64,000 bases of DNA from a virus. Shown here piece by piece: positions 12,546-32,377 of the stretch (positions are counted from its first letter, which is position 1; every line of letters starts with the position of its first letter). A program made the position numbers and the translations under genes. The notes beneath the pieces were generated by a model, which was given only the letters and a program-made list of their open reading frames with translations, did not search any database and was not told the DNA's origin. The stretch is from UHGV virus genome UHGV-0300374; one strand, written 5' to 3'.

Positions 12546-14162
12546 TCAACGTCTAAGCCCCTCATATGGGTTTCCTCTCACTAAGTCTGTGTGAGCACCC
12601 ATTGATGGTGGCTTGAATAATTTAACTTCGTTAAGACTGTTGAAAGCATCACTGGTAGCATCCACTTGGTCATCTTTAGTTTTGCCATCACCACAAAAGC
12701 CTTCAAGCTCTTGAAAGTAAGCTTCGTTCCAACTACCTCTCAAGACTTTTACAAGTCCAGCTTCAGAAGCAGCAGAAAATCCCGCAAAGCGGGTAACTTT
12801 ATCTTTATTTGTTGGTTTAGCTCTTGCACGATAGCCTTTCTCGGCAAGTTTCCTGATGAGGGATGTTGCGTAGGATTTACCAGCAGCGCCTGGGTCTTGA
12901 GGGATAAAAATACCAGTTCGCTTACCGTCACTTTCAGCAGTCAAATTAATTTGTGTTTCGACTCCAGAGGGTCTATCTCTAAATCTTACTACATCAATGA
13001 TATAATAGCAACCGTCTTTTTTAGATTTACCCATCTTAACACCTGCTGTCCAGTCTGGATTAGGGTTAACCTCAGATGGTAAAGTTGCTGCTAAGTCCCA
13101 TGCTCTAACATCAAATACATCTTCTGGGAGTGAATCAACAATCTCACACCATTGTCTTTGCCAATAGTTTGAACCTTCTGCACGAGCCTTCCAGTTACCG
13201 AAACGAAGTCTTGCAACGTTTACAGGAGTGTTGTTTTCCAACTTACCGCGATACTTTGGTTCTAAGAAGTCAAGAATTGGGTTATCATCAATCGTACCAG
13301 AGATGAAGGTGTATGTTTGAGGAATCTCAAGAGGGAACATTTCAAGAATCTTGTCTCTCTCCCAATCAGAAACCATCACACCATCATTCATTACATACCA
13401 ACGAATACGACCACACTTCTCAGGGTCTGGATAACCTTCTTCATCTAAGAATGGTTCTACCCAATCGTAAATAAAGTGGTCTCTATCTGGGTTCATGGAA
13501 ATCTTCATGTATGAATCACCTTCAGCACCAGAACGTAGACGGGTTTGTAGGTATGAAATCTGTGAAGCAGAGAAGTGTGTACCTTCGTCAAAGTAAATAG
13601 CTGAGTATTCAATACCCTGATGACCTTCAGCGTGCTTTTCAAGTTCTAGGTAGGTAAACTTGATAGTTGCCCCAGAAGGGAATGTGATAGTCATTTTCTG
13701 CTCGTGAGGAATCCCACCAAACTTACCAAATAGTTTCTTTGCAGCAGGCCATAAACCACCTTGTAGCTGTGTTGTATTTCGACGGAAATATACAGCATTA
13801 TAGTTAGGGTCTTCAATAAATCTTAAAGAGTCCATTAACAATGCAGCAGTTTTACCAGCACCAGCAGCACCACCATAAAGAACCAAGTCAGCATTAGTGT
13901 TTAAAAAGACCTCTTGAGAACCCGGCTGAGGGGCTACATAGTTCTTATCAGTCATCAATTTAAAGATAAGGCGAACTTGGTCTGGTGTGTATCTTAATAA
14001 AGTCAGAATTTGAGTTGGAAGGAATTTAGAGGGGTCTTTACCGAATGATTTGATAATTTCTTTTACTTCATCAGAAAGCCCCAACTCTCCAGCTAGGACT
14101 TTCCTAACATCTTCCACTCGCTTCTGCTTAACAGCATTTAAGTCCATTAAGCACCTCCGCAA
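12546..14162 (-). CDS. terL: terminase large subunit
   Basis: Walker A motif VLYGGAAGAGKT near N-terminus; 538 aa; followed by portal. Confidence 0.85.
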   Translation of the reverse strand: MRRCLMDLNAVKQKRVEDVRKVLAGELGLSDEVKEIIKSFGKDPSKFLPTQILTLLRYTPDQVRLIFKLMTDKNYVAPQPGSQEVFLNTNADLVLYGGAAGAGKTAALLMDSLRFIEDPNYNAVYFRRNTTQLQGGLWPAAKKLFGKFGGIPHEQKMTITFPSGATIKFTYLELEKHAEGHQGIEYSAIYFDEGTHFSASQISYLQTRLRSGAEGDSYMKISMNPDRDHFIYDWVEPFLDEEGYPDPEKCGRIRWYVMNDGVMVSDWERDKILEMFPLEIPQTYTFISGTIDDNPILDFLEPKYRGKLENNTPVNVARLRFGNWKARAEGSNYWQRQWCEIVDSLPEDVFDVRAWDLAATLPSEVNPNPDWTAGVKMGKSKKDGCYYIIDVVRFRDRPSGVETQINLTAESDGKRTGIFIPQDPGAAGKSYATSLIRKLAEKGYRARAKPTNKDKVTRFAGFSAASEAGLVKVLRGSWNEAYFQELEGFCGDGKTKDDQVDATSDAFNSLNEVKLFKPPSMGAHTDLVRGNPYEGLRR

Positions 14163-14168
14163 ATAGAA

Positions 14169-14369
14169 TTATTCAGAGTCTGTAGCAGTCTCTTCTTTCT
14201 TAACTTCGAACTTTGCATCAACAGCATCAAGAAGTGCATCCATAGATGCTTCTTTAATATCAATACCTGTTGCTACAGACAATCTGTCTGCAATTGCCAT
14301 GATAGTATTCTGCATAAATTCTAGCTTCTTATTAGCTTCATAAAGTTCTTTATAAACGGTCTCGCTCAT
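14169..14369 (-). CDS. hypothetical small protein upstream of terminase
   Basis: ORF track, 66 aa; too small to call small terminase. Confidence 0.3.
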   Translation of the reverse strand: MSETVYKELYEANKKLEFMQNTIMAIADRLSVATGIDIKEASMDALLDAVDAKFEVKKEETATDSE

Positions 14370-14766: not shown

Positions 14767-15501
14767 TTATTTCTGTAATGCGCTCTTCATTTCTGGTGTT
14801 GCAATAGTGTCAATCACACCAGTTTTACAGGCATCATCAAACCAGTCTGGTAAGATACCTGCTAAGAACCCATTGATATTCGTTCTAAGGTACTCTGCAA
14901 TAAGGGCAGCTTCTTCTTCAATCATCTGCACAACTTCATCTGCATAAGCTGTAATCTTTGAAATACCTTCATTAATCTTACTAACAGCCTGATTAGCTAA
15001 ATCAGAAACAGTATCAAGACCCTCATCAATAGCGTCTTGTAAGTCACTTAACACACCATTAACACTATCTAGTGTACTGTTAATCATGTCAATAGCTTTT
15101 TGACCATACTCTGTAGCAACACCCATAATACCACTGAATGGTGTACAACCAACTTGTTCTCCTGCTGCACCCATAACATTGGAGTATCCCTTTGCTACCT
15201 GCATACGTGATGAAAACTCATCAATAGACTTTTGACCGTAGTCTGTCAGGGTCTTAGTAGTTGCTGTAGTGCTTGTAAGGCTTGTTGTAAAGCTGTTTAG
15301 AAGGACTGTTGTAAGTCCAGCAGCAACAAGCTTATCTTTTACTGTAGGGTCTGATACAGAACTAATAGAGCTTACAAGTGATGTAGAGGCAGCTACGGTT
15401 CCACCGAGAACTGCTGCACCAGTAATAAGGGGGTTAGAAAACCCTTTACCAGTTTTTAAGAGATTAAAAATCTCCTTACCTTGTTCTGTCATCTCTTTCA
15501 T
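14767..15501 (-). CDS. hypothetical protein (Ser/Thr-rich N-terminal half)
   Basis: ORF-track start 15564 overlaps tRNA-Phe; internal ATG at 15501 has RBS aaaggtg and avoids the tRNA. Confidence 0.45.
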   Translation of the reverse strand: MKEMTEQGKEIFNLLKTGKGFSNPLITGAAVLGGTVAASTSLVSSISSVSDPTVKDKLVAAGLTTVLLNSFTTSLTSTTATTKTLTDYGQKSIDEFSSRMQVAKGYSNVMGAAGEQVGCTPFSGIMGVATEYGQKAIDMINSTLDSVNGVLSDLQDAIDEGLDTVSDLANQAVSKINEGISKITAYADEVVQMIEEEAALIAEYLRTNINGFLAGILPDWFDDACKTGVIDTIATPEMKSALQK

Positions 15502-15517
15502 TAAGCACCTTTGAAAT

Positions 15518-15594
15518 TGGTAGTCCAGTGGGATTTGAACCCTCTTCTCATGTTTTTCAGACACGCGCTTTAACCATATAAGCTACTTGGACTA
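15518..15594 (-). tRNA. tRNA-Phe (GAA)
   Basis: Anticodon stem CGTGT/ACATG with loop CTGAAAA; T-loop TTCAAAT; acceptor TAGTCCA/TGGACTA. Confidence 0.6.
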
Positions 15595-16749: not shown

Positions 16750-16767
16750 AAATTCCTCTTGCTTATC

Positions 16768-16843
16768 TGGCGCAGGATAAGGGATTCGAACCCCTATTAA
16801 CAGTTTCGTAGACTGTTGCTCTATCCATTTGAACTAATCCTGC
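16768..16843 (-). tRNA. tRNA-Arg (ACG)
   Basis: Anticodon stem ACAGT/ACTGT loop CTACGAA; acceptor GCAGGAT/ATCCTGC; T-loop TTCGAAT. Confidence 0.7.
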
Positions 16844-16848
16844 AAAAT

Positions 16849-16926
16849 TGGTGTTCCAAGACGGATTCGAACCGTCACTAATACAAGGTTTGAGCTTGCA
16901 TCCTCTGCCAATTGGGATACTGGAAC
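16849..16926 (-). tRNA. tRNA with Leu anticodon CAA (class-I-like short variable arm)
   Basis: Anticodon loop CTCAAAC, discriminator A, T-arm GACGGTTCGAATCCGTC. Confidence 0.5.
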
Positions 16927-16927
16927 A

Positions 16928-17002
16928 TGGTACTCACTAAAGGACTTGAACCTTTTTCTTCATCTTGTAAGGGTGGTGTTTTACCATATAAACTAAGCGA
17001 GT
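16928..17002 (-). tRNA. tRNA-Val (UAC) candidate, weak anticodon stem
   Basis: Acceptor ACTCGCT/AGTGAGT, D-arm GTTT..AAAC, T-arm AAAGGTTCAAGTCCTTT, loop CTTACAA but only 3 of 5 anticodon-stem pairs. Confidence 0.4.
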
Positions 17003-17098
17003 GTGAAAGAGGTCTGAAGTTGTGCCGCTAACTCAACTCCGTGGAATTTGTTACGGTCTTCAGTTGACTCAAAGCGGTCTTTCACTTGACCTCTGAAT

Positions 17099-17174
17099 TG
17101 GTGCTCCCACAAGGATTCGAACCCTGATAAGTTGCTTACAAGGCAACCGTAATAGCCAATTATACGATAGGAGC
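17099..17174 (-). tRNA. tRNA-Thr (UGU)
   Basis: Anticodon stem GTTGC/GCAAC loop CTTGTAA; T-arm CAGGGTTCGAATCCTTG. Confidence 0.7.
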
Positions 17175-17181
17175 ATTAATT

Positions 17182-17256
17182 TGGAGCATCCAGAGGGAAT
17201 CGAACCCTCAACCTCAGTTTGGAAGACTGTAATTTTCCCGTTTAAACTATGGATGC
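17182..17256 (-). tRNA. tRNA-Gly (UCC)
   Basis: Anticodon loop CTTCCAA; T-arm GAGGGTTCGATTCCCTC; acceptor GCATCCA/TGGATGC. Confidence 0.65.
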
Positions 17257-17262
17257 ACTAAT

Positions 17263-17338
17263 TGGTGGAGTCACTGAGAATTGAACTCAGTTCCCAAGTT
17301 TGCAAAACTCGAATTTTAACCATATAAACTATGACCCC
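17263..17338 (-). tRNA. tRNA-Ala (UGC)
   Basis: Acceptor GGGGTCA with G3:U70 wobble; anticodon loop TTTGCAA; T-arm CTGAGTTCAATTCTCAG. Confidence 0.7.
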
Positions 17339-17344
17339 ATTGTT

Positions 17345-17420
17345 TGGTACAGGTGGAGGGAATTGAACCCATCGTCTTACTGATTAAGAGTCAGCCGCAT
17401 AACCATTTTGCTACACCTGC
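17345..17420 (-). tRNA. tRNA-Lys (CUU), copy 1
   Basis: Anticodon stem GCTGA/TCAGT loop CTCTTAA; acceptor GCAGGTG/CACCTGT; T-stem weak. Confidence 0.55.
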
Positions 17421-17427
17421 ATTAATT

Positions 17428-17505
17428 TGGTAGGAGACAAGGGATTCGAACCCTCAAACACCAACTTCTAAGGATGGTAGGTTTACCAATTACCGTCAAT
17501 CTCCC
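17428..17505 (-). tRNA. tRNA with Leu anticodon UAG (class-I-like short variable arm)
   Basis: Anticodon loop CTTAGAA, discriminator A, acceptor GGGAGAT/GTCTCCT with wobbles. Confidence 0.45.
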
Positions 17506-17761
17506 ATTAAATCTTTTTAGAGAACTTCTAAGAACCTAAGCAACAAGGTTCCACAACAAGCTGTAATAACCTTAGAAGCCCTCTAAAAAGACCTAAAAAG
17601 GTCTTTGCATAGTCTTGTTTAATCCGGTGACTAGAACCTTTGGAGAGCTTGATATTATCTCTTCTCCGTGACACCTACTAGGTGCTTTATCAGTGTGTAC
17701 GACAATACACGAGGGATACCAAAGCAACATCCGAATGAAGCTTGGCTTTAAAATCTTATTA

Positions 17762-17851
17762 GGCGGTAAGTAAAGGAGTCGAACCCTCACCGTATCTCTA
17801 CAGTGGCAACTGTTTTCAAGACAGTTTGGCTACCATTAGCCGCTACCTACC
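17762..17851 (-). tRNA. tRNA-Ser (UGA), long variable arm
   Basis: Acceptor GGTAGGT/ACTTACC, anticodon stem ACTGT/ACAGT loop CTTGAAA, about 90 nt, CCA not fully encoded. Confidence 0.55.
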
Positions 17852-17864
17852 CCTAATAAGACTT

Positions 17865-17947
17865 TGGCATGGGACGGAGGAGTTGAACCCCTTTGAAACG
17901 GTGTTGGAAGCCGTTGCTCATGCCTTAGAGTCTTAACATCGTCCCAT
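17865..17947 (-). tRNA. tRNA-Trp (CCA) candidate with extended D region
   Basis: Perfect acceptor ATGGGAC/GTCCCAT, T-loop TTCAACT, hairpin AACGG-CTTCCAACA-CCGTT carrying CCA; D region about 7 nt longer than canonical. Confidence 0.4.
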
Positions 17948-18089
17948 ACTATAATTCGAAGCTTACCGTATTATCTCAACACTGTAAAGCCCCTTCTCAG
18001 ATTATTTACATGTTCTGGAAAACATGAGATACAGACCACCTCCCTACAGGAAGACCCGCTTAGGTCGTCTAAGTAATCTGCTAACTAAT

Positions 18090-18166
18090 TGGCACACCCT
18101 ACAGGATTCGAACCTGTAACTAACGATTTAGAAGACCGTTGCTCTATCCAATTGAACTAAGGGTGC
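18090..18166 (-). tRNA. tRNA-Arg (UCU)
   Basis: Anticodon stem ACGGT/ATCGT loop CTTCTAA; D-arm GTTCAATTGGATAGAGC; T-arm ACAGGTTCGAATCCTGT. Confidence 0.7.
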
Positions 18167-18413
18167 ATTAATCTTTAAAGACTCTCTTAGAAAGCCCTTA
18201 AAGATGCCCACCTTATTAATCATACCGTGGGCTAGTACGCCAAATTCTTTGATGAGGGATTGGAAGACCTCACTGGTGTTTAGCCTATCAAGCTACTGCC
18301 AGAAAAACATTGTCGTTTGCATTTATTTTAAATTTGCAAAATAGACGCTACGCAACGAAAACTAAGGTTACTATAAAGTAGTCACATCTCAATGTCAACA
18401 ACTTTATTGAAAT

Positions 18414-18489
18414 TGGTACTGGTAGGTGGAATCGAACCACCAATGTTCCCTTATCAGGGGAGTGTTATAACCTTCTTAACTATACCAGC
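18414..18489 (-). tRNA. tRNA-Ile (GAU)
   Basis: Anticodon loop CTGATAA; T-arm GGTGGTTCGATTCCACC; acceptor GCTGGTA/TACCAGT. Confidence 0.65.
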
Positions 18490-18490
18490 T

Positions 18491-18567
18491 TGGAGGTTCA
18501 GATGGGAATCGAACCCACATTCATAGGGCTTATGAGACCCTTGCATTACCTTATCTGCGACTGAACC
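18491..18567 (-). tRNA. tRNA-Met (CAU)
   Basis: Anticodon stem AGGGT/GCCCT loop CTCATAA; acceptor GGTTCAG/CTGAACC. Confidence 0.65.
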
Positions 18568-18571
18568 ATAT

Positions 18572-18647
18572 TGGTAGAAGTGGAGGGAATTGAACCCATC
18601 GTCTTACTGATTAAGAGTCAGCCGCATAACCATTCTGCTACACTTCC
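18572..18647 (-). tRNA. tRNA-Lys (CUU), copy 2
   Basis: Anticodon/T-arm identical to copy at 17345-17420 but acceptor GGAAGTG/CACTTCT. Confidence 0.55.
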
Positions 18648-18653
18648 ATTAAA

Positions 18654-18793
18654 TTATCTTTGTAGATAAGCTACCCAGACTTGCTTAAGGTCTGTAGCGA
18701 TGTGCCTTTTTGGGTTTAAATCTAGAATTTACCCTTTCACCCTTTGTGGTCGCATACTCACAGGTAAGCTTAATAACTTATCTACAAAGATAA
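18654..18793 (-). ncRNA. structured spacer bounded by perfect 17-bp inverted repeat (candidate small RNA/processing element)
   Basis: ttatctttgtagataag at 18654-18670 and its exact reverse complement at 18777-18793, 106 nt apart; no tRNA fold, no credible ORF. Confidence 0.35.
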
Positions 18794-18829
18794 TTACCAG
18801 ACCGTTGTTTATCATCTTAAGTGCTACCA

Positions 18830-18878
18830 TTACACCAACTCGACATCTGCCGAGTGAAGGAATCGAACCTTCGCCTTT
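18830..18878 (-). ncRNA. tRNA-like minihelix/tRNA fragment (T-arm plus closed acceptor hairpin)
   Basis: GAAGGTTCGATTCCTTC T-arm followed by ACTCGGC-AGAT-GTCGAGT hairpin then a D-arm-like GGTGTAATGGTAGCAC; no matching 5' acceptor strand upstream. Confidence 0.35.
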
Positions 18879-18907
18879 TCTTTACCGAGAAATAGATTGT
18901 TTAAGTT

Positions 18908-18935
18908 TTGCTGTAAACGGTCTTCTGTAAATTTG
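18908..18935 (-). repeat. conserved 28-nt tRNA-spacer motif, copy 1
   Basis: ttgctgtaaacggtcttctgtaaatttg; identical copy at 19390 and variants at 18996 and 19566. Confidence 0.5.
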
Positions 18936-18995
18936 TTGAGCCAGACCAAGTTTTAAATTTTTCAAAATTAAATTGGCTTGAAATTTTAAGTAACT

Positions 18996-19015
18996 TGCTG
19001 TATTTGGTCTTCTGC
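18996..19015 (-). repeat. conserved tRNA-spacer motif, copy 2 (variant)
   Basis: ttgctgtatttggtcttctg. Confidence 0.4.
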
Positions 19016-19075
19016 TCCTTTAAAGGATACTCGTAAGAACCCTTTAAGGGAGGGGCTAAATAGCCCTCTCAAAAT

Positions 19076-19152
19076 TGGCGGTTACGAAGGGATTTGAACC
19101 CTCATCATCTCCCGTGACAGGGGAGTATTTTAACCAAATTAAACTACATAAC
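19076..19152 (-). tRNA. tRNA-Asp (GUC)
   Basis: Perfect anticodon stem CTCCC/GGGAG loop CTGTCAC; acceptor GGTTATG/CGTAACC. Confidence 0.7.
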
Positions 19153-19157
19153 CTTTA

Positions 19158-19246
19158 TTGGTGTGCCGTGTAGGAGTCGAACCTACCGAGTCTCAATGAC
19201 AAGGGATTTACAGTCCCCACCGCTACCATCTACGGGATAACGACAC
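19158..19246 (-). tRNA. tRNA-Tyr (GUA), long variable arm
   Basis: Anticodon stem GGGGA/TCCCT loop CTGTAAA; 89 nt; T-arm GTAGGTTCGACTCCTAC. Confidence 0.65.
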
Positions 19247-19255
19247 ATTTAAATT

Positions 19256-19332
19256 TGGCGGTTAGTCAGGGATTCGAACCCTGTGCCATTCGCTTAACAG
19301 GCGACCGCACATACCTTATGTGCTTCCTAACC
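19256..19332 (-). tRNA. tRNA-Asn (GUU)
   Basis: Anticodon loop CTGTTAA; D-arm GCACA..TGTGC; T-arm CAGGGTTCGAATCCCTG. Confidence 0.6.
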
Positions 19333-19389
19333 ATGTTTAGCATTACCAGACCGTATATTTCAATTTTTCCGCTAAAAATTTAATAAATA

Positions 19390-19418
19390 TTGCTGTAAAC
19401 GGTCTTCTGTAAATTTGG
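19390..19418 (-). repeat. conserved 28-nt tRNA-spacer motif, copy 3
   Basis: ttgctgtaaacggtcttctgtaaatttgg abutting the 3' end of the tRNA at 19416. Confidence 0.5.
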
Positions 19419-19492
19419 AGGCGGGTGCAGGAGTCGAACCTGCCGATACCATGCTAATGAGACATGTGAGACGCCCTTTCTCTATACCCGCA
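19416..19492 (-). tRNA. tRNA with CAU anticodon (second Met, initiator or Ile-lysidine type)
   Basis: Anticodon stem CATGT/GCATG loop CTCATTA; T-arm GCAGGTTCGACTCCTGC; 1:72 mismatch. Confidence 0.5.
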
Positions 19493-19565
19493 ATTCTTAA
19501 TGACCAGACCAAATATCTTCTTTGTCCGATTAACTTTCAGATGAGTAGATTAAGTTTGCTGTAAT

Positions 19566-19595
19566 TGGTCTTCTGTCAAAACTGGCGTTCCAGAA
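19566..19595 (-). repeat. conserved tRNA-spacer motif, copy 4 (variant)
   Basis: ttgctgtaattggtcttctgtcaaaactgg; minus-strand reading contains TTGACA. Confidence 0.45.
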
Positions 19596-19670
19596 GGGAT
19601 TTGAACCCTCAAATATCCACTTTGAAAGAGTGGTGACTTTACCATTTTGTCTACTGGAACATTAATTTGG
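19593..19670 (-). tRNA. tRNA-Glu (UUC)
   Basis: Perfect anticodon stem CCACT/AGTGG loop CTTTCAA; acceptor GTTCCAG/CTGGAAC. Confidence 0.7.
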
Positions 19671-19677
19671 TCTCTGT

Positions 19678-19754
19678 TGGAGGACTTGAACCTCCGGCCT
19701 TACCGCCCCAAACGGAACGCTCTACCAAGCTGAGCTAAACAGAGATAAACTTTT
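19678..19754 (-). tRNA. tRNA-Pro (UGG)
   Basis: Anticodon loop TTTGGGG with G37; D-arm GCTCAGCTTGGTAGAGC; T-arm GGAGGTTCAAGTCCTCC. Confidence 0.65.
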
Positions 19755-19909
19755 CAAACTCTATGTAACCACTTTAACATTATTTTTTAGTGGTTGTCAA
19801 GAACTTTTTTAAAATATTTTTCAGTATCTTAGAAAAGCTCTCGTTTCGTTTCTATGTAGAACATATTAAAGGGTATCAAACACATTGTCAATACCCTTTT
19901 TAAAACTTT

Positions 19910-29881: not shown

Positions 29882-30439
29882 GTGATAGATATGGAAAAAG
29901 ATAACTTAAAAGATGTTGAAGGTAACTATCTAGTCCTTGACTGGAAGGATGTTCGGGAAGCACTCTCCGAAGAAAATCTTGACTGGTTCGAACAAATTAT
30001 CTTTGCAGTACGGCATAACCGAGAAGTTGAAAATGGTAAAGAGCCATTAGAAGGAATCTTTGTAGAGAGGTCTTATCCGTTCTATGAAGACACTTTGCAG
30101 AAAGTTAAGATGTACTTTAAACAGAAGAACCGTAAAGTGGTCACTATGGTATCTCTTGGTGGACAGAGTATGTCTGTGATGGAAGATATCAACCCTAAGA
30201 GACCGAGTAAAGGCGTTTGTATAAAAATCACAGGACATGAAGAGTATATCTCAGTTGATGACTTTAGTGCATTCTGTAATGGCTCTTGTGTCTTTAATGG
30301 TTTTCACTATGATATCCGAGTGTACCCAATCAAGGGAGATGATATCATGATGCAGGTATTTGATAACAACAATGGCTTTACTCATTTTTATCAGACAACC
30401 AAGTCATCACTAAAAACAGTTCTGGAAACACTGATTTAA
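29882..30439 (+). CDS. hypothetical protein (last gene of plus-strand block)
   Basis: ORF track, 185 aa, followed by terminator. Confidence 0.45.
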   Translation: MIDMEKDNLKDVEGNYLVLDWKDVREALSEENLDWFEQIIFAVRHNREVENGKEPLEGIFVERSYPFYEDTLQKVKMYFKQKNRKVVTMVSLGGQSMSVMEDINPKRPSKGVCIKITGHEEYISVDDFSAFCNGSCVFNGFHYDIRVYPIKGDDIMMQVFDNNNGFTHFYQTTKSSLKTVLETLI

Positions 30440-30450
30440 AATATCTTAAG

Positions 30451-30476
30451 AGCCTCCTTAATTGGGGGCTTTTTAT
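30451..30476 (+). terminator. intrinsic terminator closing plus-strand block
   Basis: agcctcc-ttaatt-gggggct hairpin followed by ttttt. Confidence 0.5.
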
Positions 30477-30479
30477 TGA

Positions 30480-32060
30480 GTAAAATTTACGAAATTTATA
30501 TTTTTATAAAATTTTATCGGTTGTCCCAACCTCTGGGTCACCATCATATGTGAACAAAATATCTACCCTTCTTAACAACCTTCTTAATCTTACTCTCTAT
30601 ATAGTTATATAGTACTATATAGTATCTTAGTAACTATCTAGTGGTCTTAATAGCCCTCTGTATAGCCCTTCTAAATAGCCATCTAAACACTCTTCTAACA
30701 AGCCTTCTAAACAACCTATACAATCATCTTAACCATCTCTCTACACACTCTTAGAAGCTCCTATACACCTCTTAATCTCTATGTAAGCTATGATACTCTC
30801 TATAGGTGTTCACTAGGTATTACTAAGCCTCTATATAGACTGTTTTAGCCAACTTAACAGGAATATCTTTACAGACCTTATCTCACAAGGTCTAACACGG
30901 TACTAACAAGGTATCTTATAAGCCTGTTTCTACCTGTATTTTAGAAAGACTGTATAGGTAATTATTCAGAATTTTAAAATTTTTATAAAATAGGACTATC
31001 AAGTCATTTTTTAGGGTCTTTGAAGGAACTGAAAAATATCTGATTAGGATGTATATCTGCTTGGTAGCCCTTAACAGCTCCCTTACAAGTACTTTGCAAA
31101 ATTTTAAAATATCCTTAACAATCTCTTAACAGTTCTCACATCTTCTTAACAACTCTTCAAAGGTCTTAACAGATTCTTAACAAGTCTAACAAGGTTGTAA
31201 CAGTTTTCTAACAAGACTTAATAGGGCTTTACAGAATCTTAACAGATGACTAACAAGAGCTAACAAGTTAATTTTAAAGAGTTATTTTGTTAAGATAATT
31301 AACAAGTTTCTAACAAGTGTTTAATCTTTTTAACAAGCTATTAACATGGTCACTATCTCTTTCTTATCGTTCCCTTTCCCTTCTTAGTGATTCCTTAAAC
31401 ATACCTCTTAAAAGCTCTCTATAGCTCTCTATAGCTCTTTATAAGCCCCTTTAAGCCTCTTCCTAGTATTTACCCCCCAACTGTACAGATAGCTCTTTAT
31501 AGGTCTTTACAGGAGCTTTTAAGGCTATGTCAAAGACTCTTACAAGGCTTTTACGTGGTCTTAACAGAGATTTAACAAGGGGCTAACAAGTTGCTAACAA
31601 GTGCCTTAAAAGCATAACTATGTAGGGTTTGTTAAGAAATTGTTAAGAAAATGTTAAGGGGGCTAGCATTTACGTAACTTTATAGCCTCTTTTACGTAAC
31701 TTTGAAGTAACTTTATAGCCCCTATAACATGTTTTTTAGTGACTAGCAAGGGGGTTGTTTAACCATTCACAAGATACTAACCAGCCTATAAGCTTACACC
31801 CTTATAAGATTCTTTTAAGCCTCTATAAAGCCCTGTAAAGAGCTTTTTAAGATAGGTTAATGCAATCCCTTAAGTTAGGTTGATAAGGCTGTTATAGAGC
31901 TTTATAGAGCGTTTAAATGGGCCATCCCCTTTCTGGGGTTATTGGCTTTTATTTAAGTTGATTTGATAAAAGGTTATAGAGTAGACTATAGAGTTATTGC
32001 TTTTAAGGTCTGATAAGATTCTGGAAAGGAAAGGGAAAGGGATTGTATAAGGATTCGATA
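30480..32060. repeat. 1.6-kb ORF-free block of phased degenerate short repeats (CTTAACAAG / CTAACAAG / CTCTATAG families, both orientations)
   Basis: No ORF of 60 aa or more on either strand; between 31083 and 31330 about 20 copies of nnCTTAACAr every 10-12 bp; inverted copies tgttaagaaa x3 near 31620; tacgtaactttatagcc x2 near 31670. Confidence 0.7.
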
Positions 32061-32063
32061 GAC

Positions 32064-32090
32064 GTAAAAAAGCCCCTATTTAAAGGGGCT
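32064..32090 (-). terminator. intrinsic terminator closing the minus-strand small-gene array
   Basis: agcccct-atttaa-aggggct hairpin with U6 on minus strand; a second hairpin ggggctatttagcccc sits at 32103-32118. Confidence 0.55.
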
Positions 32091-32128
32091 GTTCAGGTAT
32101 CTGGGGCTATTTAGCCCCGCTGCGTCGA

Positions 32129-32377
32129 TTAGTTATAATCTTGTTTGTTGTAGTACAGGGAGACGATTTTTTCTCCCCAATAGTGATAAGTATAACCATC
32201 CTTGAGAACTTCTTGTTTTGTTTCCTCCCAGAACTCATCCGAAGGATTATAATCTTTGATGGTCTGACTGATAAGACCTTTCACCATTTCAAAGGCGTTA
32301 TCAGTGCCTGCAATGTCAAATTTAACATCCAGAGAGGAAAAACCGAACTCGTTAACAGTAGCGCGGATAGTTGCCAT
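32129..32377 (-). CDS. hypothetical small protein (leader-cassette gene)
   Basis: ORF track, 82 aa; ATG directly preceded by conserved leader. Confidence 0.5.
   Translation of the reverse strand: MATIRATVNEFGFSSLDVKFDIAGTDNAFEMVKGLISQTIKDYNPSDEFWEETKQEVLKDGYTYHYWGEKIVSLYYNKQDYN

Follow-up and report, generated by a model that had tools for sequence, protein, structure and literature searches.

In the pac hexamers of phage P1, the R sites of lambda cosB, and the pacL and pacR boxes of SPP1, short repeats flank the position of cleavage and a small terminase or pac protein binds to them and bends or wraps the DNA. These sites are roughly 100-300 bp long with 3-7 repeats, and they give permuted headful ends in P1 and SPP1 and cohesive ends in lambda. 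The concatemer junction of T7 has a 160-bp repeat, and the heptamer CCTAAAG is found 13 times inside and beside this repeat, all on one strand and none inverted. Closest to the locus described here are the direct terminal repeats (DTRs) of Felix O1-like phages. The ends of UAB_Phi87 were determined by Bardina et al. by Bal31 digestion and run-off sequencing, the 608-bp repeat was printed in their Figure S1, and no heat-sensitive restriction fragment was found in this phage, an observation that bears on cos ends (PMC4837284). PhageTerm gave DTRs of 613 bp in Ro111lw (PMC6454146) and 581 bp in Pr103Blw (PMC8303462), and the DTRs of UAB_69 and D4 are 618 bp and 581 bp, respectively. The subject of this work is a block free of open reading frames (ORFs) in a 64,000-nucleotide stretch of the virus genome UHGV-0300374, and this whole stretch is called the window from here on. 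By comparison with relatives we identify the block as the concatemer junction of a Felix O1-like phage, holding the terminal repeat and both cut sites. The DTR in the window is orthologous to those listed above, with about 85-93% identity, the same boundaries, and the same flanking genes, and it is 601 bp long, the lengths among these phages differing by whole units of 10, 11, or 22 bp.

At 75-93% identity, the block has matches in 256 phage records. Almost all of these come from Felixounavirus (Felix O1, wV8, VpaE1, and others) or from the sister genera Mooglevirus and Suspvirus, and in the matched relatives the gap without ORFs measures 1.6-1.7 kb and lies between the same pair of genes. The genome in the window is that of a Felixounavirus, a Felix O1-like myovirus. 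The records of D4, ZX4221, and CRP22 start at the equivalent of window position 31663, and in an 801-bp search those of Pr103Blw, ECP2307, H12, NBEco004, and NBEco005 have their start or their end exactly at this position and those of ECOH1 and GE_vB_7A 2-6 bp from it. The two ends of the D4 record carry an exact repeat of 581 bp that corresponds to window 31063-31663, and the annotated DTR of Pr103Blw consists of identical 581-bp copies at both ends with the same boundaries as in the window. The 618-bp 'DTR' annotated in UAB_69 maps to window 31061-31665 and the published 608-bp repeat of UAB_Phi87 to 31061-31655. The experimental determination of ends, the PhageTerm analyses, and the independent deposited records are thus concordant within 2-8 bp, and from this concordance it follows that the window holds one collapsed copy of the 601-bp DTR at 31063-31663. 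In virion DNA the left flank adjoins the DTR copy at the end with the plus-strand gene cluster and the right flank adjoins the copy at the end with the minus-strand gene cluster.

It is established for the relatives that replication concatemers are joined head to tail and that the virion ends are unique at two fixed positions, TGTATATCTGCTT^GG and ATGTTAAGGGGGC^TAGC, where the caret marks the cut, with the DNA between the cuts (601 bp in the window) at both ends of every packaged genome. Copies of hundreds of bp at both ends, which define short, exact, non-permuted DTR ends of the T7 type, are present in the orthologous genomes of D4, Pr103Blw, and UAB_Phi87, and both boundary sequences are intact in the window and identical to those in Pr103Blw. 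Permuted ends of the headful pac type were not found, the ends of the relatives being fixed to one and the same nucleotide across many independent records. An earlier note on this DNA had offered four options for the block, namely a replication origin, a partition site, a packaging or genome-end signal, and a sink for nucleoid proteins, and had stated that they could not be told apart. That statement no longer holds because the physical ends of relatives map inside the block, and this comparative evidence separates the options: the packaging or genome-end signal is supported and neither partition nor the nucleoid sink finds any support.

Both ends of the repeat are marked by conserved words. 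On the left, TGTATATCTGCTT is invariant in Felixounavirus, Mooglevirus, and Suspvirus and is also found in Kolesnikvirus SPARTY, and the junction in the window reads ...ATATCTGCTT^GGTAGCCCTTAACA (...atatctgctt^GGTAGCCCTTAACA), the same as in Pr103Blw. The right junction, ...ATGTTAAGGGGGC^TAGCATTTACG (...ATGTTAAGGGGGC^tagcatttacg), is also the same as in Pr103Blw, and the right boundary, ATGT(T/A)AAGGGGGC^TA(G/A)C, is conserved as well as the left one in Felixounavirus, Mooglevirus, and Suspvirus. With Kolesnikvirus included, both cut-site words are conserved in four genera of the Ounavirinae. The repeat arrays described below lie close to these cuts, as Array A begins 9 bp inside the left boundary and Array C ends 5 bp from the right boundary, and the DTR is bracketed by imperfect terminal inverted arrays (31068-31100 versus 31628-31660, inverted pair I7). 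A 21-nt inverted repeat (31645-31665 and 31716-31736, 81% complementary) spans the right boundary and is conserved within Felixounavirus. The hairpin that this repeat could form was not retained as a feature of the whole group, the z score of its DNA fold being only -1.9 and its right arm not being conserved in Mooglevirus and Suspvirus, and covariation of the left- and right-boundary heptamers in these two genera was rejected because the changes are not symmetric.

The block is assembled from units of 10-11 bp, and the most prominent of these contains the core TAACA. This core occurs 26 times on the plus strand and 5 times on the minus strand of the block, where about 2.6 occurrences are expected from its density in the rest of the window, and CTAACAAG occurs nine times against 0.03 expected. 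A position weight matrix (PWM) built from the TAACA sites, with the consensus TCTTAACAAGT, finds 23 strong sites (score of at least 9) on the plus strand against 0.6 expected, and three on the minus strand. Sixteen exact TAACA cores lie at 31072-31342 with spacings of 9, 10, 11, 20, 31, 39, and 44 bp, and they fit a period of 10.3 bp with a Rayleigh R of 0.84. Several of the empty slots in this array are occupied by degenerate units, for example CCCTTACAAGT at 31083, and there is a super-period of 31 bp as well (49% self-match, z = 8.6). The count of about 20 copies every 10-12 bp given in the earlier note is therefore a fair one, and the repeat array it described exists, except that it starts at 31072 and not at 31083 and that it runs to 31342. 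The three inverted copies and the other short families listed in that note were also recovered, the former at 31630, 31641, and 31652 and the latter as the CTCTATAGCT array and a 22-bp TTTACGTAACTTT... unit at 31669-31714. The periodicity extends beyond Array A. Over the whole 1.5 kb the autocorrelations at lags 10 and 11 exceed those elsewhere in the window with z values of about 9, and in the right flank the AA/TT periodicity of 11.2 bp is above that in all 300 background segments. The coordinates of all these features, together with those of the terminase region discussed below, are given in Table 1. Relative to all eight aligned relatives the window has an extra CTCTATAGCT unit at 31413-31422. 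The GC-rich hairpin of the right flank and the T-rich run that follows it (31919-31945) occur as two alleles, CCCCTTTCTGGGG in the window and in ASO1A and GCCCTTCCCTTTCGGG in other relatives.

Table 1. Coordinates in the window of the features of the junction and of the terminase region.
Feature	Position	Strand	Description
Large terminase subunit (TerL)	12546-14162	-	PHROG 979, E = 1e-233; Pfam Terminase_6N and Terminase_6C; T4-type; predicted to cut the DTR boundaries
66-aa acidic helical ORF	14169-14369	-	7 nt upstream of TerL; PHROG 4397, function unassigned
Left flank of DTR	30440-31062 (623 bp)		ORF-free; degenerate 10-12-bp units CTATATAGTA, CCCTTCTAAACA, ACAAGGTACTA; tandem repeat (TRF) arrays; lag 10-12 autocorrelation z = 3.4-5.0
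Intrinsic-terminator-like hairpin and T-run	30454-30478 (hairpin 30454-30468)	+	closes the plus-strand gene cluster (last ORF 29882-30439); terminator annotated there in ASO1A and Mordin
13-mer TGTATATCTGCTT	31050-31062	+	directly outside the left DTR boundary; candidate context of terminase cleavage; unique in the window
DTR	31063-31663 (601 bp)		single collapsed copy here; two copies, one per end, in virion DNA, judged from the ends of relatives
Array A	31072-31346	+	16 exact and about 6 degenerate TCTTAACAAGT units, in one orientation except for one inverted copy at 31288; 10.3-bp phase, 31-bp super-period
Central DTR, second unit family	31347-31555		CTCTATAGCT x3 at 31413-31443; CTTTATAGG and CTTTACAGG at 31489-31513; 10-bp period; lag-10 autocorrelation 0.45, z = 6.2
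Array B	31562-31605	+	TAACA unit in four direct copies, exactly 11 bp apart
Array C	31629-31663	-	three inverted units (TTGTTAAGAAA x3) at 11-bp spacing; ends in GGGGGC at the right DTR boundary
Right flank of DTR	31664-32070 (about 410 bp)		ORF-free; 11-bp units TTTACGTAACTTTATAGCC x2, TTATAGAGC, CTATAGAG, GGAAAG; GC-rich hairpin 31924-31939; lag-11 z = 4.7
Hairpin pair with a T-run after the second	32071-32120 (terminator-like hairpin 32090-32071)	-	closes the minus-strand gene cluster (last ORF 32129-32377); conserved in relatives; terminator annotated in ASO1A and Mordin

When the block was compared with that of Mooglevirus and Suspvirus its nucleotide identity was 80-82%, whereas that of the two flanking protein genes was 67-70%, and the 185-aa flanking protein has an amino-acid identity of 44-55% to its counterparts in these genera. 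In Array A, conservation to Mooglevirus and Suspvirus is 93% for the columns of TAACA and 68% for all others. Conservation across eight relatives in steps of 50 bp is 0.67-0.69 at 30440-30539 and 0.80-0.94 in the left flank from 30540 onward. Among nine copies of the block, 22 of the 26 indels of at least 5 bp have sizes of 10-13 or 21-25 bp, and inside the DTR all seven are of 10, 11, or 22 bp. This shows that the arrays gain and lose entire units and thereby keep their phase, and it is because of this gain and loss of whole units that the DTRs of relatives vary in length between 581 and 618 bp. Judging from this pattern of sequence change, the helical phase of the arrays is preserved by selection.

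The same architecture is found in a fourth genus. Hafnia phage SPARTY, a Kolesnikvirus, has a 439-bp DTR by PhageTerm (PMC8928762), and its genome has a GC content of 43.7%. When the ends of its record are joined, an ORF-free junction of 1,454 bp results in which the left boundary is tgtatatctgctt^, with the same word as in the window, and the right boundary is ...AAATGTAAAAGTGGC^taac. The DTR of SPARTY has nine TAACA units with spacings of 22, 11, 20, 20, 20, 9, 11, and 11 bp, which fit a 10.2-bp phase with R = 0.89, and its inverted TAACA copies lie toward the right boundary. Its right flank, however, is made of other units, as TTAGAAG is present 12 times on one strand at junction positions 1010-1310 whereas Felixounavirus has TATAGAG and CTTTATAG units there. 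Since the TAACA unit is shared and the flank units differ, the architecture is a feature of the subfamily and the flank units are specific to each genus. A GC-rich palindromic stretch is likewise present in the right flank of SPARTY.

In the window no ORF of at least 60 aa is present on either strand between 30440 and 32128, a distance of 1,689 bp that is bounded by the stop codons of a plus-strand ORF (29882-30439) and a minus-strand ORF (32129-32377) and that is the longest such gap within the 64 kb. The terminator-like hairpins at its two edges face inward. Both the absence of ORFs and the convergent terminators reported in the earlier note are borne out. The genes on either side are syntenic across Felixounavirus, Mooglevirus, and Suspvirus, and for their proteins no Pfam family, no convincing PDB match, and only PHROGs of unknown function were found. 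The next longest ORF-free gaps in the window are three of 843-979 bp at 16.7-19.9 kb, and by alignment to relatives these gaps, lying within 16750-19909, match the tRNA gene cluster of the relatives (10.8-16.5 kb in D4).

Outside the Felix O1-like phages, the closest worked-out case is the junction of T7. In both there is a short exact DTR with unique ends, a one-strand array of heptamers both within the repeat and in the non-coding DNA next to it (13 direct and no inverted copies in T7, 23 strong plus-strand and 3 strong minus-strand sites in the window), and a T7-like replisome. There are, however, several differences. The heptamers, CCTAAAG and CTTAACA, share no sequence homology; the spacing in T7 is about 13 bp and is not helical (lag-13 match of 0.60) compared to 10.3-11 bp in the window; and the T7 junction is about 0.7 kb long with promoters inside it whereas the one in the window is 1.7 kb long, is walled by terminators, and has three inverted copies at one boundary. 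Moreover, the phage in the window is a myovirus with a T4-type TerL. The relation to the T7 junction is thus to be taken as an analogy and not as membership of one family. Compared with the sites of P1, lambda, and SPP1, the junction in the window has an array several times their size, and the ends that it gives are direct repeats that match exactly.

The most likely function of the block is that of cis-acting signals for recognition and cleavage by terminase, as in T7. The arrays are probably sites for the packaging machinery because they abut both cut sites, are specific in orientation, and are kept in phase by selection, and because the known terminase sites are clusters of short repeats, of which the one-strand heptamers of T7 are the closest worked example. 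That a putative protein may bind cooperatively to one face of the arrays is a reasonable inference. Taken as a whole, a concatemer junction with a DTR whose arrays are recognised by the packaging machinery is the explanation that we favour, and we hold it with good confidence. A probable course of events would be that the recognition sites are the units on one helical face inside the left boundary, at least 16 of TCTTAACAAGT, and the four direct and three inverted units inside the right boundary. A small-terminase-like protein, or another pac-binding protein, would wrap the DNA or bind it cooperatively along one face, and once bound would position TerL at the two cut sites. A grouping of TerL with the Felix O1 DTR cluster has been reported (PMC4837284). 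The unit families of the two flanks may serve steps that are specific to the left or the right end, such as cutting and duplication of the repeat, and the convergent terminators would keep transcription out of the site of assembly.

Several points weigh against this explanation. A small terminase could not be recognised by Pfam, PHROGs, or Pharokka annotation, and the protein that binds TAACA is a predicted one. The only candidate for a small terminase by position is the 66-aa ORF upstream of TerL, which has only seven close homologs although the motif is found throughout the subfamily. These homologs are near-identical and too few for structure prediction, and as the ORF has no Pfam or PDB match either, it was set aside. 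A 265-aa DUF7217 protein (14767-15564, minus strand), which lies further upstream of TerL and has weak tape-measure-like matches, was likewise rejected since it appears to be low-complexity and helical, and the two flanking proteins (185 aa and 82 aa) yielded no useful lead. Another point is that the composition of the block has a long-range periodicity closer to 11.1-11.6 bp than to 10.5 bp, so that strict alignment on one face holds only within the arrays. In addition, the ends of UHGV-0300374 are taken to be those of relatives that are 90% identical and have identical boundary sequences. Finally, about 1.5 kb of phased units is far beyond what the known terminase sites need, and part of the block may serve another function. 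We offer, as a tentative suggestion that may well prove wrong, that the 1.5-kb block, with its approximately 140 helical turns and with position-specific 10-11-bp units better conserved than the adjacent genes in four genera, could serve as the framework for a large and ordered complex of protein and DNA in which a DNA-binding protein that has escaped recognition would duplicate the DTR during packaging, possibly coupled to the initiation of replication.

Besides packaging, or instead of it, the arrays could be the iterons of a replication origin in or beside the DTR, where an initiator of the phage or the host would bind TAACA and open an AT-rich stretch. AT-rich stretches such as 30960-31000 and 31097-31112 adjoin the arrays, although the whole block is AT-rich, and the many repeats of the same orientation at helical spacing are like those of iteron origins of plasmids and phages. 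That the block is more strongly conserved than the neighbouring genes also fits an origin, and in T7 the secondary origins phiOL and phiOR adjoin the junction. Iteron origins, however, come with an initiator, and no initiator-like gene could be recognised among the flanking genes or in the annotated D4 genome; the replisome is T7-like, with a PolA-type polymerase, a primase-helicase, an exonuclease, and a ligase. The block has no DnaA boxes and no consensus sites for integration host factor (IHF), its 11-bp unit with a 7-bp core is shorter than the typical iteron of 17-22 bp, and GC skew tracks gene orientation only. The exact coincidence of the ends of the arrays with the ends of the genome is accounted for by packaging and not by an origin, which we consider unlikely.

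The remaining readings, namely end protection, partition, a nucleoid sink, and a non-coding RNA, have a lower likelihood. If what the arrays bind were not terminase but a protein that shields or anchors the ends of the DNA, for instance from attack by RecBCD or at the time of ejection or of concatemer formation, it would be understandable that they lie 10-40 bp from both physical ends and that the terminal inverted arrangement would present the same orientation of sites at both ends, and according to the PhageMaP preprint the related phage Bas63 lacks a RecBCD inhibitor. But no candidate protein is known, Chi is not enriched and is in fact absent from the block, and the much larger Array A is present on one side of the DTR only, which fits directional packaging better than symmetric protection, so that this explanation appears quite improbable. 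Even further from what is observed is a partition or centromere-like site or a sink for host nucleoid proteins. It has only the phased, AT-rich repeat structure in its favour, and against it are the virulent nature of the phage, the absence of ParA/ParB-like genes from 81 kb of annotated D4 sequence, and the location of the genome ends inside the block. Furthermore, the motif is conserved base by base in genera recorded from Escherichia, Salmonella, Shigella, Citrobacter, and Hafnia, and this argues for a specific binder encoded by the phage. That the block gives rise to a non-coding RNA or to small peptides is just as improbable, because the ORFs of 25-49 aa annotated inside it in some relatives are not positionally conserved among nine genomes and substitutions have no period-3 bias (conserved small coding genes in homologs, which the earlier note had named as the finding that would speak against a binding site, were looked for and not found), an Rfam search of the block gave only two weak matches over the left terminator region (E about 0.4, none below 0.35, far under gathering scores), promoter-like sites are no commoner in the block than in shuffled sequence, and both terminators face inward.

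The identity of the block as such is already known, as the Felix O1-like DTR has been known since 2016, was printed in a supplement, and is annotated in several records. In the papers that could be searched, among them those on Felix O1, wV8, UAB_Phi87, and PhageMaP/Bas63, and by keyword, we found no account of phased TAACA arrays, of conserved boundary words and flanks, or of evolution by whole units. The architecture of the arrays, the boundary words, and the flanks are useful additions to the description of these phages and not a new kind of element. In practice these findings mean that, in Felix O1-like phages, the genome terminus is what appears as the largest 'empty' region, and that collapsed assemblies should be reopened at ...GCTT^GGTAGCC with the 601 bp repeated at the far end. 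For the question of how short-DTR phages, T7 included, duplicate the repeat while concatemers are being cut, this subfamily has two invariant cut-site words and large arrays that keep their phase and are specific in orientation, features that make the requirements in cis testable by mutagenesis and that offer a bait for the small terminase or pac-binding protein.

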